Assembly (NCBI GenBank): GCA_031414775.1
Contig: JANOQI010000062.1
Coordinates: 160,001-224,000, forward strand
Length of the DNA stretch: 64,000 nt
Direction: 5' to 3'
Source: Synechococcales cyanobacterium VAR_4_metabat_354
GTDB taxonomy: Bacteria > Cyanobacteriota > Cyanobacteriia > Cyanobacteriales > Chamaesiphonaceae
Each line of letters starts with the position of its first letter. Positions within the stretch are counted from its first letter, which is position 1. Under the pieces are notes generated by a model. That model was not told the DNA's origin, made no database searches, and saw only the letters and a program-made list of their open reading frames with translations. The position numbers and the translations under genes were made by a program. This document shows, one piece after another, positions 43,122 through 54,104 of the stretch.

Positions 43122-45116
43122 ATGCTGGAATCAGCAACTGAACTAACCAGGGATCTGGCTGTTGATCGATCGCTCCTTCCCCCAGTCATTCAAGTAACCG
43201 GACTACAAAAACACTACGGCAAATTGCTAGCCATCAAAGGAATTAACTTTGAGGTCTATCCCGGCGAAATCTTCGGCCTCATCGGACCCGATGGAGCCGG
43301 AAAAACCAGCACCTTCCACATCCTCGGCGGCGTAATGGAAGCCTCCGCAGGCACCATTGATGTTTTAGGCAAGAAACCGCGCAACGCTCGCCTCAATGTC
43401 GGTTACTTAACCCAGCAATTTTCCCTGTATCTGGATCTGAGCATTGATGAGAATCTCCGCTATGTCGCGGGGCTGCGGCGGGTAGCGGAGGAAGATTTCC
43501 AGCAACGGCGACAGCAGTACCTAAAATTAATGGGACTAGAGCAGATTGGTGACAGGTTAGCCGGTCAACTTTCTGGGGGTATGAAGCAAAAACTAGCCTT
43601 GTGTTGTGCGCTGATTCCCCAGCCCCAAATCTTACTACTGGATGAACCAACCACTGGTGTGGATCCGGTTTCTCGGCGGGAGTTTTGGGATGTGTTAGCA
43701 GCACTGGCCAACACTGGTATGACAATTGTAGTGGCTACACCCTACCTCGATGAAGCCGAACGCTGTAATCGGATTGCGCTGATGTACGAAGGGCAAATCC
43801 AAGAAATTGGTACCCTACCGCAACTGCGGGCTAATTTGGGACTACAACGTTTGGAAATCCGGACTAAAAAAATTGCTGCCATCGAACAGGCGCTATTAAA
43901 CTTAGTGGACTTCGATCGCACCGGCATTGCCGATGTTCAAACCTTTGGCGATCGACTAGATGTTTTAGTGGCCGATCCACAGGCTGCTGAAAGACAAATT
44001 CGGTTAGCACTGGCGCACTTTGACCTGGATAGCATTCAAACCACCGAAACCACCCTAGAAAATGTCTTTGTGACCCGGCTGCGCCAGCAAGGCTCCGATC
44101 CGCCGTTTATTCCTTTACCCGGCCTGGTGAGCAGATCTGGTTTGACCAAAAATAAATCATCAGATGATGTTCGATCGATCGCCATCGGTGCCCAAAATCT
44201 GCACAAAACCTTTGGCAATTTTCGGGCAGTCAAAGGAGTGAATTTGGACATTCACTACGGTGAAATTTACGGTTTACTGGGTGCCAACGGTGCTGGCAAA
44301 ACTACGGTTATTAAAATGCTGTGTGGATTACTGCCGCCCAGCAGTGGCCAACTGTCCCTAGCCGGACAAACTCAAGATCTGCGTAATGGCGATCTAAGGC
44401 GACGGATTGGTTACATGAGCCAAAAGTTCACCCTCTATGATGACTTGACCGTGGTGGAAAACCTAGAATTTTATTGCGGCATCTACGAAGTACCCACCAG
44501 GCTACGCCAGCAGAAAATTAACTGGGTGCTGGAGATTTGCGGCCTAGTCGGACAAGAGAAAATGCTGACCGGACGGCTACCAGGGGGGTGGAAACAGCGA
44601 GTGGCCTTTGGCGCTTCGGTGATGCATGAACCGGAAATTTTATTTCTGGATGAGCCAACCTCTGGCGTCGATCCCTTGGCGCGGCGACAATTCTGGCGCT
44701 TAATTGAAAATTTAGCCCAGCGTGGTACTGCCGTCCTTGTCACCACCCACTACCTGGAAGAAGCCGAGCAGTGCAACCGGATGGGCTTTATGGTCGCTGG
44801 AGAAGTGGTGCTGCAAGGTTCACCCAGCGAAGTCAAAGCTGCCCAACGGGGGCAGCTGGTCGAACTGCGGGTAAGTCGTAATCAACAAGCCTCCCATGTT
44901 TTGAGGTCTTATTTAGAGAGCTGGCGGGTATCGATCTTTGGCGACAGGTTACATGTGGTGCTAGATCATCCTGATCGCGAAATCCCCCAAATCCAATCCC
45001 TGTTAGATAATGCCCAGATCCAAGTCCAATCAGTTCGCCCGGTGCCCTTTTCCCTCGAAGATGCTTTCATTAGCGTCGTCCAACGGGCAGGAGCGGGTGG
45101 ACATGCTGCCGAATAG
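43122..45116 (+). CDS. ABC transporter ATP-binding protein with two NBDs (YbhF-like)
   Basis: GPDGAGKTS/LSGGMKQK/LDEPT and GANGAGKTT/LPGGWKQR/LDEPT. Confidence 0.94.
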   Translation: MLESATELTRDLAVDRSLLPPVIQVTGLQKHYGKLLAIKGINFEVYPGEIFGLIGPDGAGKTSTFHILGGVMEASAGTIDVLGKKPRNARLNVGYLTQQFSLYLDLSIDENLRYVAGLRRVAEEDFQQRRQQYLKLMGLEQIGDRLAGQLSGGMKQKLALCCALIPQPQILLLDEPTTGVDPVSRREFWDVLAALANTGMTIVVATPYLDEAERCNRIALMYEGQIQEIGTLPQLRANLGLQRLEIRTKKIAAIEQALLNLVDFDRTGIADVQTFGDRLDVLVADPQAAERQIRLALAHFDLDSIQTTETTLENVFVTRLRQQGSDPPFIPLPGLVSRSGLTKNKSSDDVRSIAIGAQNLHKTFGNFRAVKGVNLDIHYGEIYGLLGANGAGKTTVIKMLCGLLPPSSGQLSLAGQTQDLRNGDLRRRIGYMSQKFTLYDDLTVVENLEFYCGIYEVPTRLRQQKINWVLEICGLVGQEKMLTGRLPGGWKQRVAFGASVMHEPEILFLDEPTSGVDPLARRQFWRLIENLAQRGTAVLVTTHYLEEAEQCNRMGFMVAGEVVLQGSPSEVKAAQRGQLVELRVSRNQQASHVLRSYLESWRVSIFGDRLHVVLDHPDREIPQIQSLLDNAQIQVQSVRPVPFSLEDAFISVVQRAGAGGHAAE

Positions 45117-45247
45117 CTAAGTGGCAATACATCGAGTTTATTTGTAAATAAAACTAACAATATAGTCCCAGTACAGTGATGTACTTATATTATTTCCTAT
45201 AATAGGTAAAATCTACTATAGATACAGACAAGATCACCTGCAATTTT

Positions 45248-45973
45248 ATGATTTATCCTTTACCACCAAAAGTAAGTAAGTTATTGCCTGATCTGCTAAA
45301 TAAAGGAATGATTCAGCTTGATTTAGATGGCGAAATACCAATTTTTCGAGCATCTACAATTATGCAAAAAAGAGTGGCTATTTTACAAGAATCCAGCGAT
45401 TCCAATAAATTACTAGAACAAGAAGAATTGCTTTGTCATGAAGAGATGCAGGCTTATCTTTCTTTTGTAGAACAATCTTTGCATAAAATATCTGAAAGAG
45501 AGCAAAATCATTTAATTGAGCAGTATAAAATTTGTATCGAAATGGCAGATAGAGTCACGGAGAGAAGAACCAAGATAAGTAGTTTTTATCTTTCTGTTTT
45601 GACAGGCCTATTAGTATTTTCATCCCTTCCTTACTTCAAAGATAGTATTGTTATCAATCCTAGTAGGCAAATAACGCTAATGACTAGTTTCACTGGTGCA
45701 TTTATCTGTATCTTGTGGTGGATAAATATAGCATCTTATAAAAATTTAAATTCTATCAAATTCACAGTTATTCGTGAAATGGAGAAAAACTTGCCATATC
45801 CCTGCTTTGAAAGAGAATGGGATACAAAATCTTCTAATGTCGAGAAGTACAAAAAGCTAAGAAAAGCAGAATCGTTCGTCCCCATAGTAATAGCAATTCC
45901 TTTTCCTTATCTCATCATTTCACTTACTAGTATTTATGATTTATTTTCATTGTTCTTAAATAGATCCAGATAA
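45248..45973 (+). CDS. Membrane protein: N-terminal soluble domain + 3-TM domain resembling the 'RipA/octameric membrane protein' type
   Basis: EQYKICIEMADRVTERR..SSFY, W...IASYKNLNSIKFTVIREMEKNLP..EREW; three hydrophobic segments; family name recalled, not searched. Confidence 0.65.
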   Translation: MIYPLPPKVSKLLPDLLNKGMIQLDLDGEIPIFRASTIMQKRVAILQESSDSNKLLEQEELLCHEEMQAYLSFVEQSLHKISEREQNHLIEQYKICIEMADRVTERRTKISSFYLSVLTGLLVFSSLPYFKDSIVINPSRQITLMTSFTGAFICILWWINIASYKNLNSIKFTVIREMEKNLPYPCFEREWDTKSSNVEKYKKLRKAESFVPIVIAIPFPYLIISLTSIYDLFSLFLNRSR

Positions 45974-46002
45974 CTTAAAACACCATATTACGAGGTTGGA
46001 TT

Positions 46003-48066
46003 ATGCATACAAATGAAACTAGAAGAATTTTTATATCTTGGTCTGGTAAATGGGGTAGAGAAATCGCTGATTTTCTCAGCGAAAGAATGTTTGCAATTAA
46101 TGGTTACGAAGCATGGGTTTCCTTTAGAGATATTCAAAGAGGAGCAGAATGGTATTCTGCAACTATGGAAAAACTAAGTGAATCTGATGTGGGAATTTTT
46201 TGCTTTACACCTGGAGTGTTAACTAGTCCTTGGTTCAATTTTGAGGCTGGATACATGGCAGGCAAAGGATATATAGAAAGCAGAGAATCAAGACAGGAAA
46301 ATAACGAAAACCAAAGACAGTCTCATAGACTTTATGTTATTCAATTTGGAGACGAAAATATATATACCCCTCTAGATCGATATCAATCTACAACGGCGAA
46401 TCAAATAAATGATTGGGTAGATTTAGTTTCACAAATCACAGATGATCCAAATTTTAGTAGAACGTGGGTAAATGATAGGTATCCTGAATTAGAGAGACTA
46501 CTAAGAAAGAATGAAAAACCACCTTTGAAATATTTTAATGATTTGAATAAAACATTAGTTGATATATGCAAAACTATTGATATACTCAACAATAGAAATC
46601 AAGTTGCAATGGAAAACATATGTTTCCATAAAATTATTTTAGAATCTTATCAAGATATCAAAAATAGAACGAAGAAAATAAGTAATAGCTACTCAATTCC
46701 ATCTTATTATTATGCACCTTCCTTATTTTCTTTGCAAGATGATGTTAATATACAGCCAATAGTTAAAGCTATCGCTTTAGTTAATATGGAAGAACAATTT
46801 TGGTCACAGTTAGCAGGTAGAGAAATACTTCGTACTTCCAAACCTGAAAATATTCGCATATTTGTTTTTAAAGATGATAAAGATTTTAATAATTTTTATG
46901 AGACTTTAAGTGTACATTCTAGAAAATATCAAGTTTATGCAATCAGTAGTAAAAATTTATTAGATATCGTTGGTGCAGATTATGCAACTGATTTTTCAAT
47001 TATACAATCTTCAATCAATGGAGATCGTATTCTTGCTCTTTATGAGGATGCAAATAATCTGCTCGACAAAGGGATTTGTTTCACATGTGATCAAGATCAT
47101 ATAAATGAATATGAAGACAGATTCCAACATATTTTAAATTTTAAATATCTTGTCAATATCTCTATAATTATAGAAACGAATACTATTGAGGATCTGAGTA
47201 AGACAATCTTCCAATCGACAAATACACTTTTGAAAAAACCGATAGAAATGTCTGCATATATTGATATAACAGATTATGATAGGCATGAGGAAAATCATGC
47301 TTACTATCAAGATATGATGCAACATATGATTTATATCTGCTTAGATCACTCCCAAAAGTTGAATAATAATTCAATATCTATTTTAGAGATGGGAGCTGGC
47401 ACGGGGATCTTCAGTCTTCGGCTAATTGAAAACATAAATAGTCTAGTTAAGCTTGATATTATTGAAATCGACTGGCATTGTTTTCATCTTCTAAAATCCA
47501 AAATAAAAGAATGTTTTAACGCAAATACAATTATTTCTGATGTTGCCGACAAACTTGAAATAAATATTGAACACCGTGAACGCAATACTCGTATCAATGT
47601 TTATCACAAAGATAGTAGATGGTATGACCCAAATGGAAAATTTGATTACATTGTTTCGTCTTTCGCCGATCATCATATTCACGATTTTGACAAGCAAAAA
47701 TATTTCGATAATGTCAAAAGAAATTTAAATTCTAATGGATTATTTATTATTGGAGATGAATTTTTAAGGGTATATGATCAAAATAAAACAGATGACAAAA
47801 GAAATGCTTTAGAAGACTATCATAATCATATTATAAATATTGCTAAAAGAGAAGGACACCATGTTCTTGTCTCTTTAGAACAAGCAGCTTTAGAATCAGG
47901 AATTAAAGGAATAGGTGATTTCAAAGTTTCTTGTGAAGAATATGAGAGATATTTAGATAATGCTGGTTTTAGATTTGATGAGCCTCAAAAAATAGGTCCG
48001 TTAGAACTAGATAATGTTGGAGGAATTTACGTTTACAAATGTAAATTCAGTAAGAACGAAGATTGA
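46003..48066 (+). CDS. TIR domain - central domain - class I SAM-dependent methyltransferase fusion
   Basis: TIR: RIFISWSG, WVSFRDIQRGAEW, SPWFNFEAG; MTase: ILEMGAGTG, IIEID, FDYIVSSFADHHI, LNSNGLFIIGDEF. Confidence 0.85.
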   Translation: MHTNETRRIFISWSGKWGREIADFLSERMFAINGYEAWVSFRDIQRGAEWYSATMEKLSESDVGIFCFTPGVLTSPWFNFEAGYMAGKGYIESRESRQENNENQRQSHRLYVIQFGDENIYTPLDRYQSTTANQINDWVDLVSQITDDPNFSRTWVNDRYPELERLLRKNEKPPLKYFNDLNKTLVDICKTIDILNNRNQVAMENICFHKIILESYQDIKNRTKKISNSYSIPSYYYAPSLFSLQDDVNIQPIVKAIALVNMEEQFWSQLAGREILRTSKPENIRIFVFKDDKDFNNFYETLSVHSRKYQVYAISSKNLLDIVGADYATDFSIIQSSINGDRILALYEDANNLLDKGICFTCDQDHINEYEDRFQHILNFKYLVNISIIIETNTIEDLSKTIFQSTNTLLKKPIEMSAYIDITDYDRHEENHAYYQDMMQHMIYICLDHSQKLNNNSISILEMGAGTGIFSLRLIENINSLVKLDIIEIDWHCFHLLKSKIKECFNANTIISDVADKLEINIEHRERNTRINVYHKDSRWYDPNGKFDYIVSSFADHHIHDFDKQKYFDNVKRNLNSNGLFIIGDEFLRVYDQNKTDDKRNALEDYHNHIINIAKREGHHVLVSLEQAALESGIKGIGDFKVSCEEYERYLDNAGFRFDEPQKIGPLELDNVGGIYVYKCKFSKNED

Positions 48067-48157
48067 TATTTATATTGATCTATCCCTGATTTATCACTCT
48101 AAAATCTTCTAGCCTTATTTCTTCACCTTTAGTCAATAAATGTAGGGCTTAATATCT

Positions 48158-49258
48158 ATGTCTCGCATTATTACTCAATGTCGTAAAGAACTAGCACAGT
48201 TCCGACGCGATCAATTAACCCTCGCTTTGGCCTTTGTTCTGCCGTTTCTAACCTTGCTGATTTTTGGTTTTGCGATTCGCTTAGAAGCCAAGGATATTCC
48301 CTTGGTCGTGCAAGACTTCGATCGCAGTAATTTGAGTCAACGCTACACCGAACGCTTATTTACTACCAATCAGTTTATCCCGGTGGCCTGGAGTGGTGAT
48401 GCTGAGATAGCCTTGGATCGAAACATGGCTAAGGCTGTAGTAATTGTGCCACCAGATTTCAGCCGTTATTTGACCGCCGAAAAACCCACTGAAATCCAAG
48501 TTTTAGTTGATGGCACCGATGCCAATAACGCCCGGGTGATTAAGAACAGCATAAAAGCAATCACTCAATCCTTTCTACAAACCGAAAAATTGATCCCTAA
48601 CACAGTTCCCATTACCACCCATACCCGTCTGTGGTTCAATCCGGGGCGACAGGAATCGCTTTATATCGTACCGGGGGTGTATGCCGTAGTCCTTTGGATT
48701 TTCCCCTCCCTATTGTCCGCGATCGCGATGGTACGCGAAAAAGAAAAGGGCACGATTTTACAAGTCTACGCCTCAGATATGAGTGCTGAAGAATTGATTC
48801 TAGGTAAGGTTTTAGCCTATTCGATCGTCGGCTTAGGAATGACGATCGGCACCATGGGCCTAGGTGCTCTGATCTTTCAACTCCGTTTAGCTGGCGACCC
48901 CACTCCGCTGCTGATTGGCACACCACTATATGTGGCGACCAGTGTGATGTTTGGCACTATGCTCGGTGCCCATGCCAGTAATCAAAATGCCGCTGTCCAA
49001 GGAGTATCACTAGTGGGTTTCTTGACGGCTTTACTCCTGTCGGGGTTTATCTATCCCCTCAACAATATTCCCTTTCCCCTGTCACTGGTCTCTAATATTA
49101 TTCCTGCCCGCTATTTTATTACTATTACCCGTGATGCCTATGTACGTGGGGTGGGCTGGCCGGGAGTCTGGTTTAGCTTGCTGATGATTTTAGTGTTGGG
49201 ATTGTTGCTGTTCAACGTGGCGCGGAAATCTCTCAGTCGGATGCAGTTAGGAGATTAA
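48158..49258 (+). CDS. ABC-2 type transporter permease (YbhS-like)
   Basis: KELAQFRRD, DGTDAN, WFNPG, REKEKGT, LSGFIYP. Confidence 0.92.
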   Translation: MSRIITQCRKELAQFRRDQLTLALAFVLPFLTLLIFGFAIRLEAKDIPLVVQDFDRSNLSQRYTERLFTTNQFIPVAWSGDAEIALDRNMAKAVVIVPPDFSRYLTAEKPTEIQVLVDGTDANNARVIKNSIKAITQSFLQTEKLIPNTVPITTHTRLWFNPGRQESLYIVPGVYAVVLWIFPSLLSAIAMVREKEKGTILQVYASDMSAEELILGKVLAYSIVGLGMTIGTMGLGALIFQLRLAGDPTPLLIGTPLYVATSVMFGTMLGAHASNQNAAVQGVSLVGFLTALLLSGFIYPLNNIPFPLSLVSNIIPARYFITITRDAYVRGVGWPGVWFSLLMILVLGLLLFNVARKSLSRMQLGD

Positions 49259-50495: not shown

Positions 50496-51362
50496 ATGAT
50501 ACGAATACTCACATGTTCCATTCCCGTAACATGTCTGCGAAACTCGCAAAAGGCAAGTATTACAGTGAATAATACAAATCCACTGATCGCACCACCACCG
50601 CTAGAAGTGCCATTGAAAAATGCACCTTTGGTGAGAGCAATAGCGCAAGTAAGGTTTCCGCCGATTTTATCGATCGAGGAGCAAAAATTTGTAGGTCCCT
50701 TTCAAGAGGCAATTCGGGAAAAATATCCGATTTTAGAGCCAATCCAAACCCAAAACGTAATATTCAACACTGAAGGTGTGTTGGTAAATCCTCCGACACC
50801 TCAGACTACTTGGTGTTTTTGGAATGTAGATCGGACTTGGCGGATTTCATTGGCAAGTAGTGCTGTATCAATTGAGACAACTAAATATACTAGTCGCAGT
50901 GACTTTTTATCTCGGTTAGAAAGTTTACTTGTAACACTTCATAGTAGTTTTCGCTTGTCGCAGATCGATCGATTGGGACTGCGCTATATTGATCGGATTG
51001 TCGGTCAAAATTTGCAAGATATTTCTCAATTAATTAGACCCGAAATGGCTGGTATTATTTGTAGCGATCTTCAGGAGTACGTACATCAAGTTTTACATGA
51101 ATCATTATTTTTGTTGCCATCAGGAGAAGCACAAATCGCCGCCAGATGGGGTGTTATGCCTGCAAATTATACTTTTGATCCCTACGGAATAGAAGCTATT
51201 CCCGAGAGTAGTTGGATACTCGACCTAGATATGTCTGCGGTAAAAGTCCAAGAATTCAGCGTTGAATCTCTAATGCAACAGGCTAACAATTTTACTGAGA
51301 GACTTTATACATTCTTTCGCTGGGTAGTAACTGATGAATTCTTACAACGCTATGGTGGTTAA
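50496..51362 (+). CDS. TIGR04255-like family protein
   Basis: LKNAPLVRAIAQVRF, ETTKYTSRSDF, RLGLRYID, WILDLD, FFRWVVTDEF; real start may be GTG 50565. Confidence 0.8.
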   Translation: MIRILTCSIPVTCLRNSQKASITVNNTNPLIAPPPLEVPLKNAPLVRAIAQVRFPPILSIEEQKFVGPFQEAIREKYPILEPIQTQNVIFNTEGVLVNPPTPQTTWCFWNVDRTWRISLASSAVSIETTKYTSRSDFLSRLESLLVTLHSSFRLSQIDRLGLRYIDRIVGQNLQDISQLIRPEMAGIICSDLQEYVHQVLHESLFLLPSGEAQIAARWGVMPANYTFDPYGIEAIPESSWILDLDMSAVKVQEFSVESLMQQANNFTERLYTFFRWVVTDEFLQRYGG

Positions 51363-51364
51363 TC

Positions 51365-52054
51365 ATGAATACTCTTTTAGAAAAAACGACTAATCAAAGA
51401 CTATTATCAAAGTGCCAAAGACCAGCATTAGACAGTAGATTTATATCAAATGTTGCAATTTTTGTTGTCGATTACAGTACAACAGTCAGGAGAGAAACCG
51501 ACTATCTTCATCTTTCAGCTGCCCTAAAGATGACCACCAGTGGTGTAGAAATACGATCGACTGTCTCACAAGTATTACTATCAACTCCGCCAGGAAGAAC
51601 TACGCAGCAAGCAATAAATGAATTAAGAAAATTAAGTGGATTAACTTGGGAACAACTTGCCACCCTCTTCAATGTTTCTCGCCGTAGCGTTCATTTTTGG
51701 GCAAGTGGACAACCCCTTACTTCTGCAAATGAACAGAAATTAAATCGAATTCTGGACGTAGTTGAGTACATTTCTCGTAGTATTTCCAGTCGCAATCGCA
51801 GTTTACTGATGGACATTGCTAATGATGGGAAATCCTACCTAGATCTGCTTGCAGCAGGTGAATACGATCAAGTCAAACATTTGCTCGGTGCGGGTAATGC
51901 ACCAGCAAAACCCAAACTAGGGCAACTATCACCCGCCGCAGAAATGTCGCGACTACCACCAAATCCAGCAGATCTGGTAGATGCCCTCCAAGATTCAATT
52001 CATCATGAAGTGGGCAAATCGAGAGCGGCTAAAAGTGTGAGGAGTCGAAATTAA
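51365..52054 (+). CDS. XRE-type HTH protein with long N- and C-terminal extensions
   Basis: INELRKLSGLTWEQLATLFNVSRRSVHFWASG; starts 2 nt after the upstream stop. Confidence 0.82.
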   Translation: MNTLLEKTTNQRLLSKCQRPALDSRFISNVAIFVVDYSTTVRRETDYLHLSAALKMTTSGVEIRSTVSQVLLSTPPGRTTQQAINELRKLSGLTWEQLATLFNVSRRSVHFWASGQPLTSANEQKLNRILDVVEYISRSISSRNRSLLMDIANDGKSYLDLLAAGEYDQVKHLLGAGNAPAKPKLGQLSPAAEMSRLPPNPADLVDALQDSIHHEVGKSRAAKSVRSRN

Positions 52055-52229
52055 TAGTGACGAGCAATGAGCGTGACAGTTGGATTTCAGCCATAGATTC
52101 CACTTTGAGCAAATGGTCTCAAGGGGATTGTACGATCGGAGACGATCACTGGTTCATTACTCGATTCGATCCGAAACGTCCCTTAACACCAGATTCTAAA
52201 GACGTTGTAGAATCAGATGCCAATGCTGA

Positions 52230-53372
52230 TACCAATTTAAATTGAATAGGTGACAAACAAGATAAACTAAAAATGTTGTAATTGAGATATTTGAGATGGC
52301 TGGAGTGACTGCAATTATCGTGAAAGAGAGCTTGGATGAAATATCCGAACGATTACGTCAAGCTAGCCAACCGATTGTTAAAGAGCGCCTACAAATGCTG
52401 TACTGGCTGAAACAGGAAAAGGCACCAAGTATCAGTAATATAGCGAAAGCCATAGGGAGACATCGAGGCACATTACAAGAGTGGTTAAGAATCTATCGAG
52501 AAGAAGGACTACCCGCATTGGAAATAGTTAAAAGTAAACCTGGTGGAGGAAGAAGAATTATCCCCAAATGGGCAGAGGAGGCTTTATCGAAGCGTTTGCA
52601 AGAGCCAGAAAACGGTTTTGTGAGCTATGGAGCAGTTCAACAATGGTTAGCCGAGACATTAGGCGTAGAAGCTGAGTATCATGCAGTTTATCAAATGACT
52701 CGTTATCGGCTCAAAGCTAAGCTGAAAGTAGCACGGCCTAGACATTACAAGCAAAGTCAGGAGCAGAGAGAGGCTTTTAAAAAAACCTCGCCGATGACCT
52801 AGAGCTATTAATGGTACACGACCAGAAGAACAATCGACCTATTAGATATTTTGCTCAGGATGAGAGTCGCTTTGGACTAAAAACTTTAGTAGGTAGAGTT
52901 CTCACAGCCTGTGGAATCAAACCAATTGGAGAATGGCAATGGTTGTTTAAGGCATTCTGGCTATATGGGGCTGTGGAACCTGCTACAGGAGAGTCTTTTT
53001 TTCTGCAATTTTCTCATGTCGATACTGAGTGCTTTCAGATATTTTTGGATAAATTCTCTAAGGCTTATCCGGATAGCCTCAATATTATTCAGGTGGACAA
53101 TGGCCGTTTTCATGCCAGCAAGAAGTTGGTGGTACCAGAGAATATCATTTTGTTGTTTCAGCCTCCTTATTGTCCAGAGTTAAATCCGATTGAGCACTTG
53201 TGGCAATACCTCAAAGCTGATTTACGGTGGGCTTCTTTTAAAAACCTAGAGCAACTTCAAACCAAATTAGGACAACTTTTAGCGCAGTTGACTCCTGAAG
53301 TTATTACTTCCGTTACAGGATATCCCTTTATTCTGGATGCTCTATCCGTCGTTAATGCTATTTAAATTGGTA
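52230..53372 (+). mobile_element. IS630-family insertion sequence (1143 bp)
   Basis: Terminal inverted repeats TACCAATTTAAAT / ATTTAAATTGGTA; flanked by TGA on both sides; DDE transposase inside. Confidence 0.93.
52296..53365 (+). CDS. IS630 transposase, two ORFs joined by a probable programmed -1 frameshift
   Basis: HTH ORF 52296-52802; catalytic ORF with QDESRFG, DNGRFH, PELNPIE; slippery TTTT-A7 at 52775-52785 and the -1 frame stays open (KNLADDLELLMVHDQ). Confidence 0.9.
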
Positions 53373-54104
53373 TGATTTAGCAGAGTCAGCAGTCAGAGGT
53401 TTTGTTATTGTTACTCAGACATGCGATCTAGTCCGTTCTTGTAAAGATCGCCCTTTCGTCGAAATCTCGCCATTAGTAGAAGTTGATGCCGAATGGTTGG
53501 CAGAAATTAAAAGACTGAAGCGACCCAACTATTCTTATATTGCAGGAGTTGCCGATCTCTTTTTGGTCGCTGACCTTGATCGAGTGATGACAATCGAAAA
53601 GGCTGTTGTTGCAACATGGGAAAAAATACCAGGATGCCAAAGTGATGCAGATATTCGATCGCTGGGAGAGGCATTATCACGAAAACGTAGTCGATTTGCT
53701 TTTCCTGATGATTTTAATAAATTAGCTCAAAAGCTACAAAAACGAATGCAGGACAAACACGAAAAAACTAGCCCTGAAGGTAAGGCTCTTCGTGCTTTAG
53801 TTGAAATCAGAGTAAGGGCGGCACCATCTTGGGGTGATGAGAAAAAAGTAGAACTATTTTTCTGGTTTATTTGTACAGAGGAAGAGGATTGCTCTAAAGA
53901 CATGGAATGGCATAAACGATTACCTGAGTGGCTGAATCTACTCCCTACATCGGGAAGATTTACAACCGTGGATGGCTCGGTAGTAAAGTTGGAAGATATG
54001 ACAGCTAAAGATTACGCGCAAAGTGATCGACTCGATCTTGATCGGCTATCTTCCCATTGAATGACATTTATAGAAGTCAACTATCAGTGTAGGACTGAAA
54101 GTCA

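Follow-up and report, generated by a model that had tools for sequence, protein, structure and literature searches.

A candidate Thoeris-like module in a cyanobacterial genome, pairing a TIR–pseudo-PLD–methyltransferase protein with an 8xMP membrane protein

We describe a two-gene module in Synechococcales cyanobacterium VAR_4_metabat_354, found in a stretch of 64,000 nucleotides of contig JANOQI010000062.1 (positions 160,001 to 224,000; the whole stretch is hereafter the window). Gene 1 encodes a membrane protein of the 8xMP family. Gene 2 encodes a long protein in which a TIR domain, a helical dimerisation linker, a domain with the fold of phospholipase D (PLD) and TrmB proteins, and a class I S-adenosylmethionine (SAM) methyltransferase follow one another (Table 1). 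We class the module as probably working like Thoeris in this clade, outside every described type and with an undescribed candidate sensor module. That the two genes work together we hold with high confidence, and an anti-phage or anti-element role we consider probable. The whole chain proposed below, in which a Thoeris-like mobile module has a built-in metabolite sensor and its TIR makes a messenger that opens 8xMP, is tentative, and we put it at slightly under an even chance.

The initial annotation, made from the letters and a list of open reading frames (ORFs), described two co-oriented genes in an AT-rich island, the longer with a TIR carrying a catalytic glutamate and with a C-terminal class I SAM methyltransferase; all of this stands. 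Both genes are on the plus strand, 29 nt apart. The AlphaFold model of gene 2 has a mean predicted local distance difference test (pLDDT) of 89.6, and the homologue search gives 59 proteins: the query, 57 long homologues with 31-72% identity and one TIR-only match. Pfam TIR_2 matches residues 9-86 (E 2.4e-8), the catalytic Glu81 sits in the motif SPWFNFEAG, and the TIR profile also matches the bacterial TIR structures 7uxr, 7uwg and 8g83. The glutamate is present in 112/114 non-extended homologues, in 31/31 plain locus rows, and in 14/14 rows of 8xMP/AstE loci (duplicates and the window counted). In N-terminally extended forms it is found in only 2/27 proteins and 1/13 locus rows. We take the extension to be a helix-turn-helix (HTH), which has a weak GerE match (E 0.0027) in one protein. 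Loss of this glutamate is thus confined, with few exceptions in these alignments, to the forms read as HTH-fused.

The central domain had been likened, in the initial annotation, to catalytically dead PLD/TrmB-like ligand-sensing folds, and structure comparison agrees. Folded alone, the central part reaches a pLDDT of 90.9. VIA-align gives Z 11.5 to SauUSI (root-mean-square deviation 3.4, 152 aligned), 11.0 to TrmBL2 and 10.9 to Nuc, with PLD-fold proteins throughout ranks 1-22, and Foldseek places TrmBL2 at the top (E 4.7e-5). The HxKxxxxD (HKD) motif is missing from the domain; the equivalent strand, placed from the fold, is TDFSII with a conserved Asp330. An active PLD nuclease is ruled out by the missing motif. 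The conserved residues of the domain are E264, W267, R285, H305, Y309, D330 and Y347. As in the TrmB and TrmBL2 regulators (PDB 2f5t, 3qph, 5bpd; Z 9.4-11.0), long dimerisation helices are followed by a non-catalytic PLD-fold domain; unlike them, gene 2 has a TIR where they have an HTH, and identity is 5-10%. A BFVD fold search returned generic PLD proteins only, none at E 0.001. In the ESM Atlas the best scores for the central domain are 0.81, and one cluster with 12% DUF6879 is a mere lead.

Two copies of residues 176-410 are predicted to form a homodimer with a score of 0.71, perhaps raised in part by resemblance to TrmB-type dimers of known structure; the best of three controls scored 0.00, and the mark for this score is passed by 20/30 solved pairs and 1/23 single chains. 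The runs agree in at least 84% of contacts, with a pLDDT of at least 80. The predicted interface consists of the two long helices and one domain edge and leaves the seven conserved residues free. We therefore infer a TrmB-like layout with the TIRs at the head and the ligand face free, and dimerisation through the helices would place the two TIRs side by side.

The methyltransferase is the best-conserved part of gene 2. Pfam Methyltransf_23 matches residues 453-590 (E 2.6e-9), with the motif GAGTG at residues 464-468, and the closest solved relatives are MM_2633, BelI and CysG (PDB 9fcd, 9fce, 3dtn), with profile E-values of 2e-16 to 8e-14 and 16-19% identity. In CysG, the metal is held by His122-His123-Asp191 and the substrate carboxylate by Arg22, according to the available part of PMC11408123. 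The His-His metal site of these metal-dependent O-methyltransferases is kept here (SALSIHH aligns with SSFADHH; each His in 126/131 rows). Asp639, conserved in 122/131 rows, lies 82 residues past His557, versus 69 in CysG, and is a candidate third metal ligand. The position of Arg22 is apparently that of a conserved Glu429, placed by spacing alone, and the substrate may therefore not be a carboxylate. Two stand-alone relatives of this methyltransferase have contexts that may hint at its substrate: L036:3110-3856, in a Nanoarchaeota genome, is two genes from a TrmB regulator on the opposite strand, and L039:8019-8765 is in an Omnitrophota radical-SAM/sugar biosynthetic cluster. Locus L063 has a methyltransferase identical to the one in the three-gene locus L055, with a cpYpsA SLOG-domain gene (L063:1160-2359) 400 bp downstream of it.

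Gene 1 had been annotated as a three-helix membrane protein and a plausible effector. The three hydrophobic stretches are there (~109-135, 141-163 and 205-239 by Kyte-Doolittle; a stricter threshold keeps the last two only), and the effector role gains from the finding, given below, that 8xMP follows short TIR genes elsewhere. What had been missed is that the protein belongs to a catalogued family and has an extra N-terminal domain. Pfam PF24838 (8xMP) matches residues 90-224 with E 5.4e-30 and 104.4 bits, versus a cut-off of 30, and the Atlas clusters for one homologue (L005) are named “RipA family octameric membrane protein”. We found no solved relative of gene 1, and PADLOC has no family or model for 8xMP. 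The N-terminal domain has matches in 17/60 relatives (best E 8e-12). In 4/7 loci inspected, the free-standing small protein to which it is homologous has an ORF 2 nt downstream that, going by its motif, we take to be HNH-like. The fusion of this domain to 8xMP occurs in 2 proteins only, and the full-length homologue, P0213, has 69% identity. The longest contig is 6085 bases both for P0213 and for P0216, which shares a cluster with the 72% homologue of gene 2; this hints at a single locus. As a side observation, one small-genome family of the phylum (L123-L143) carries a divergent solo 8xMP in ~30 genomes, with no adjoining TIR in those scanned; 8xMP may therefore also serve a non-immune role.

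The association of the two genes was analysed in 42 genome and 34 metagenome loci, leaving out the weak methyltransferase-only rows L043-L050 and L085-L096. We kept 50 distinct loci with the central domain, 40 non-HTH and 10 HTH-type, the window excluded. The co-occurrence of the two genes, which the initial annotation named as a check, holds near the window and thins out beyond it: 8xMP adjoins gene 2 in 8/9 of the closest distinct loci (at least 39% identity), which come from several cyanobacterial families and have differing flanks, but family-wide in only 9/40 non-HTH loci (6/28 of those with adequate flank). None of the 10 HTH-type loci has 8xMP. The rarity of 8xMP in phylum genomes and the locus counts rule out chance adjacency: it exceeds the cut-off in 6/301 phylum genomes (the small-genome family excluded), of which two are this system and one has it beside a ThsB_TIR gene. 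The 8xMPs linked to the system split into two groups in a quick tree.

The window has the two genes first proposed as a system, but elsewhere a fuller form has a third gene of the AstE/AspA family. This gene adjoins in 7/40 non-HTH loci, in 6 of them together with 8xMP, and the usual order is 8xMP, AstE-like gene, gene 2. The AstE-like subfamily comprises 23 proteins at E 1e-20 with intact HxxE, NR, H and E zinc-hydrolase motifs. A search of 401 class genomes gave a single match, flanked by 8xMP and gene 2; the genome of the window yielded none.

The 8xMP family also pairs with TIR genes on plasmids. From 21 matching plasmid records, we examined 8. In 5/8, the gene immediately upstream of 8xMP encodes a short TIR; a TIR lies three genes off in 1/8, and 2/8 have none; the two short TIRs scanned are both ThsB_TIR. 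These short TIR plus 8xMP operons (L146:3543-4438, L147:3540-4480, L148:3463-4450, L149:3531-4459 and L151:3561-4438 on plasmids of five genera, and L121:1387-2414 in a genome) are a candidate Thoeris type; some of the operons lie beside type I restriction-modification, PIN, HEPN or TIR-caspase genes.

The gene 2 family is widespread but rare. A central-domain profile search gave 145 representatives, and the domain is patchy, with 5/401 class genomes having it. Its taxa include cyanobacteria, Acidobacteriota, Actinomycetota, Bacteroidota, Chloroflexota and one archaeal methanogen; a quick family tree is poorly resolved. Amongst 188 proteins, 112 have the TIR-PLD-methyltransferase layout, 28 TIR-PLD, 19 PLD-methyltransferase, 28 PLD only and 1 TIR only; fragments account for many of the shorter ones. 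In 30 proteins scanned for heads and tails, the same core bears a CAP12-type TIR (P0103, P0109, P0188). The pseudo-PLD core is also found with a class III cyclase (P0102), an EAD1 domain (P0122), an NDT-like domain (P0105, P0184), a hydrophobic N-terminus, that is, a membrane helix (P0147, P0154), or a sigma-70 region 4 HTH (P0158, P0169). In six proteins, two GAF domains replace the methyltransferase. In several Nostocales-type loci (L021, L022, L024, L025, L027) the methyltransferase is a separate downstream gene, which fits a diffusible link. Such variety is what one would expect if the sensing core stays the same and its outputs are exchanged.

Several members of the family depart from this plan. 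The ~900-residue proteins L165:5008-7806, P0120, P0125, P0134, P0139, P0141 and P0144 read HTH - dead TIR - pseudo-PLD - GAF - GAF, and this scaffold has probably given rise to a regulator in them. The methyltransferase gene found close to the L165 relative is of a generic kind, and we did not count it. P0184, a distant protein, reads NDT-like - PLD-like - methyltransferase, but its methyltransferase is of another subtype; going by it, the three-part layout may have arisen more than once. In L001:2990-4443, a transposase gene lies inside the three-gene operon, where gene 2 is split between two ORFs. Copies also appear broken in L020, L023, L031, L041 and L042, and together these suggest frequent inactivation.

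The insert that carries the two genes has a GC content of 0.307 versus 0.456 for the whole genome, and none of the 1187 non-overlapping 3-kb bins of the genome has a GC of 0.32 or less. A point absent from the initial annotation is that this island interrupts an ABC (ATP-binding cassette) exporter operon. The operon is unbroken in relatives; in two of the same genus, 54 bp (G001) and 34 bp (G007) separate the flank matches. Two other genomes (G003 and G014) have a different cargo of ~0.8 kb at the same operon site, and we therefore regard the site as an insertion hotspot. From their motifs, we take these cargoes to be a PIN-type pair and a Uma2-like gene. Full-length gene 2 was not found in 60 relatives. 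On composition and comparison, we read the insert as a recent gain of foreign genes at this hotspot. One contig of run X1, possibly the source run, covers 44500-48700 with 0 differences, and overlapping contigs of run X4 from the same study traverse both island edges with 0 differences and a gap at 46632-46706. These contigs, and independent homologues at 72% and 69% identity, rule out an assembly artefact. Promoter, terminator and repeat scans of the locus stayed at chance level, and neither terminal repeats nor a mobility gene was found at the insert. In the window, 2.4 kb downstream, positions 50496-54060 hold a second foreign-looking cassette with a TIGR04255-family gene, an HTH gene and a third gene split into open-frame pieces at ~52070-52243 and 53380-54060. 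The element that splits it (52296-53365) is presumably IS630-like, from its ORF pattern.

No named system matches the pair in PADLOC, NCBIfam or the literature searched, as the initial annotation had supposed. PADLOC gives partial-domain matches only (TIR-TM, 1.9e-15 over 81/293 positions, and mad2), and we rejected a known PADLOC system. Of the NCBIfam Thoeris models, the best for gene 2 is ThcB4, with 25 bits versus a cut-off of 220. A gene 2-type system was not found in the literature searched, most subscription journals and preprint supplements lying outside it, and the gene 2 protein is not described in the available parts of PMC10853773 and 10.1101/2024.12.20.629578.

With Thoeris in general the module shares a TIR with a catalytic glutamate. 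The available text of Yirmiya et al. (10.64898/2025.12.03.692087) describes Thoeris types V-XI, and the type V effector there is a three-helix heptamer, DUF2270 (ThsF), gated by 3’cADPR. The likeness to type V is that of a catalytic TIR gene beside a gene for a membrane protein with three helices and a predicted ring assembly (a heptamer for ThsF, an octamer by family name for 8xMP). The differences are that the effector here is PF24838 and theirs PF10028, that TIR_2 here is in a 687-residue protein with a pseudo-PLD domain and a methyltransferase, and that an AstE-type accessory hydrolase is on the side of this system. PF10028 has no match on gene 1 at E up to 1 and is absent from the 25 of 30 families listed for 24 8xMP proteins, and a DUF2270 search gave 0/201 genomes. 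The main text of the type V-XI paper does not contain “methyl”; the plain TIR plus 8xMP pair may figure among its untested effectors. Type VII Thoeris has a SLATT effector, whereas gene 1 scores 13.6 bits for SLATT_4 versus a cut-off of 55. Distant kinship is possible, as SLATT_1 reaches E 0.00088 in 2/24 8xMP relatives. In L026, a SLATT gene lies downstream.

Type II Metis, as described in the available part of Osterman et al. (10.1101/2025.11.05.686725), has a clearing hydrolase, the HAD phosphatase MisB, and a three-helix predicted octamer gated by m6dAMP (MisC). On the chain proposed here, the shared features would be a three-helix octameric effector, an accessory hydrolase clearing basal signal and methylation in the signal logic. 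Here there are instead a TIR and a small-molecule-type methyltransferase, without a HAD gene or DNA adenine methylase; no HAD gene was found in the island or in the scanned neighbours of 8xMP loci. Three-helix ring effectors gated by small nucleotides, as reported for type V Thoeris and type II Metis, are a precedent by analogy for the role proposed for 8xMP. The comparison extends to cyclic-oligonucleotide-based antiphage signalling systems (CBASS). In their TIR-STING and TIR-SAVED effectors, a TIR is joined to a dimeric ligand-binding domain. Gene 2 is predicted to have the same arrangement, and its core also bears CAP12-type TIR or membrane heads; it differs in that the putative ligand domain is of the PLD/TrmB fold with a methyltransferase attached. 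No CD-NTase, pyrimidine cyclase or STING, SAVED or cNMP-binding sensor was found in the window or the scanned neighbours.

Our results are anatomy, conservation, a predicted dimer and gene associations, and from them we infer every biochemical step. In the chain that we favour, the pseudo-PLD domain would act like the effector-binding domain of TrmB and bind a small ligand, whose level would be set by the methyltransferase producing or consuming it with SAM. Infection, through a nucleotide-pool change or SAM loss, would tip the balance and activate the TIR; the dimeric TIR would convert NAD+ to an ADP-ribose-type messenger; and the messenger would open the 8xMP ring, leading to cell death or arrest. 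In lineages without 8xMP, the TIR output would probably be plain NAD+ depletion. The AstE/AspA-type zinc hydrolase may have an accessory part, clearing ligand or signal at the basal level, and this copy would be able to do without it. The most novel version is a methylation-controlled immune pathway, in which a small metabolite, or the product of the TIR, gains or loses a methyl mark through a SAM-dependent enzyme. The TrmB-like domain would read the mark and a dedicated zinc deacylase would take it off, and the whole would gate the TIR and an 8xMP pore. We rate this version as rather unlikely. If true, it would mean new messenger chemistry and a new sensor fold, and it could guard against phage SAM lyases.

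Several observations weigh against the chain we favour. Gene 2 has no match to ThsB_TIR (PF08937) at E up to 1, only to TIR_2. The rows behind the glutamate contrast are not independent, because the extended forms are largely one cyanobacterial HTH clade, and each of the non-TIR head swaps occurs in one or two proteins. There is no 8xMP in 31/40 non-HTH loci (22/28 with adequate flank), and in loci without it we found no other recurring partner of the gene 2 family. Most family members stand alone amongst neighbours that are mostly housekeeping genes. Defence neighbours, which the initial annotation proposed to look for, are scarce: a defence gene is one of the two nearest genes per side in ~5/37 loci (125 neighbours scanned, no matched control), namely L006, L060, L062, L067 and weakly L018, and these neighbours are Eco29kI-type and type II restriction endonucleases, Lamassu, a GmrSD-like gene and a weak IIG fragment. 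No gene 2 relatives were found in viral contigs or plasmids.

The alternative that survives best makes the methyltransferase the source of the signal, which would be a methylated nucleotide or metabolite. The TIR-pseudo-PLD part would then be a ligand-gated NADase like TIR-STING and TIR-SAVED, 8xMP a second effector of the same ligand, and the AstE-like enzyme would remove it. The strong conservation of the methyltransferase, the many loci without a partner gene, the effector-type heads (CAP12-type TIR, membrane helix) on the same core, and the precedent of MisC, which a methylated nucleotide gates and which is predicted to form an octamer of three-helix subunits (10.1101/2025.11.05.686725), all favour it. 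However, the short TIR genes found with 8xMP elsewhere lack an adjoining methyltransferase, 0/10 dead-TIR loci have 8xMP though most keep the methyltransferase, and MisC is not known to belong to 8xMP. We give this alternative a low probability.

A role in metabolic or stress signalling outside defence seems to us improbable. Gene 2 would be a TrmB-like one-component sensor of a methylatable metabolite, its TIR, HTH or cyclase heads regulatory outputs and 8xMP a regulated channel or exporter. The TrmB fold is in keeping with this, as are the regulator-like HTH-pseudo-PLD and HTH-deadTIR-pseudo-PLD-GAF-GAF relatives, the predominance of housekeeping neighbours and the stand-alone methyltransferase relative in a biosynthetic cluster, but the patchy distribution (5/401), extreme low GC, cargo hotspot, frequent broken copies and TIR/8xMP pairing typify conflict systems. 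Least probable, to the point of being a long shot, is a protein-level guard in which gene 2 directly binds or methylates 8xMP or a phage protein, the small N-terminal domain being a built-in inhibitor, with no diffusible messenger: the homologue of that domain precedes HNH-like genes in an antitoxin-like position and AstE/AspA enzymes share the carboxypeptidase fold, but the fusion is in 2 proteins only and the methyltransferase is closest to small-molecule enzymes.

Table 1. Features of the island and its flanks, in window coordinates.
Feature	Position	Strand	Remarks
Flank, host: double ABC ATPase, exporter operon that the insert interrupts	43122..45116	+	
Low-GC insert	45117..48157	.	Between ABC ATPase and first permease of ABC-exporter operon; ~3.0 kb
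Gene 1: predicted effector with three membrane helices, 8xMP (RipA-family octameric membrane protein)	45248..45973	+	PF24838; 241 aa
N-terminal ~80-aa domain of gene 1	45248..45493	+	Homologue of a small cyanobacterial protein that occurs on its own
Gene 2: TIR - helical dimerisation linker - pseudo-PLD/TrmB - class I SAM methyltransferase	46003..48066	+	687 aa
TIR domain, TIR_2 type	46021..46452	+	Pfam TIR_2; catalytic Glu81 at 46243-46245
Two long helices, residues 176-225, core of predicted homodimer interface	46528..46677	+	Secondary structure, homodimer prediction
PLD/TrmB-fold domain without HKD	46678..47172	+	Structure comparison; candidate ligand face outside predicted dimer interface
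Class I methyltransferase, nearest MM_2633/BelI/CysG	47233..48051	+	GAGTG 47392-47406; His557-His558 47671-47676; Asp639 47917-47919
Flank, host: first ABC permease, same operon	48158..49258	+	

To our knowledge, little has been established about the way in which TIRs of the Thoeris type sense infection. In gene 2 a candidate sensor is fused to the TIR, and trigger and output are therefore testable in one purified protein. One cluster of the gene 2 family has 151 members, cultured cyanobacterial sources among them, and material for study therefore exists. If the chain we favour is true, a non-catalytic PLD/TrmB fold would join STING, SAVED and SLOG as an immune ligand sensor, the uncharacterised 8xMP family would gain a function, and a methylated messenger might emerge.

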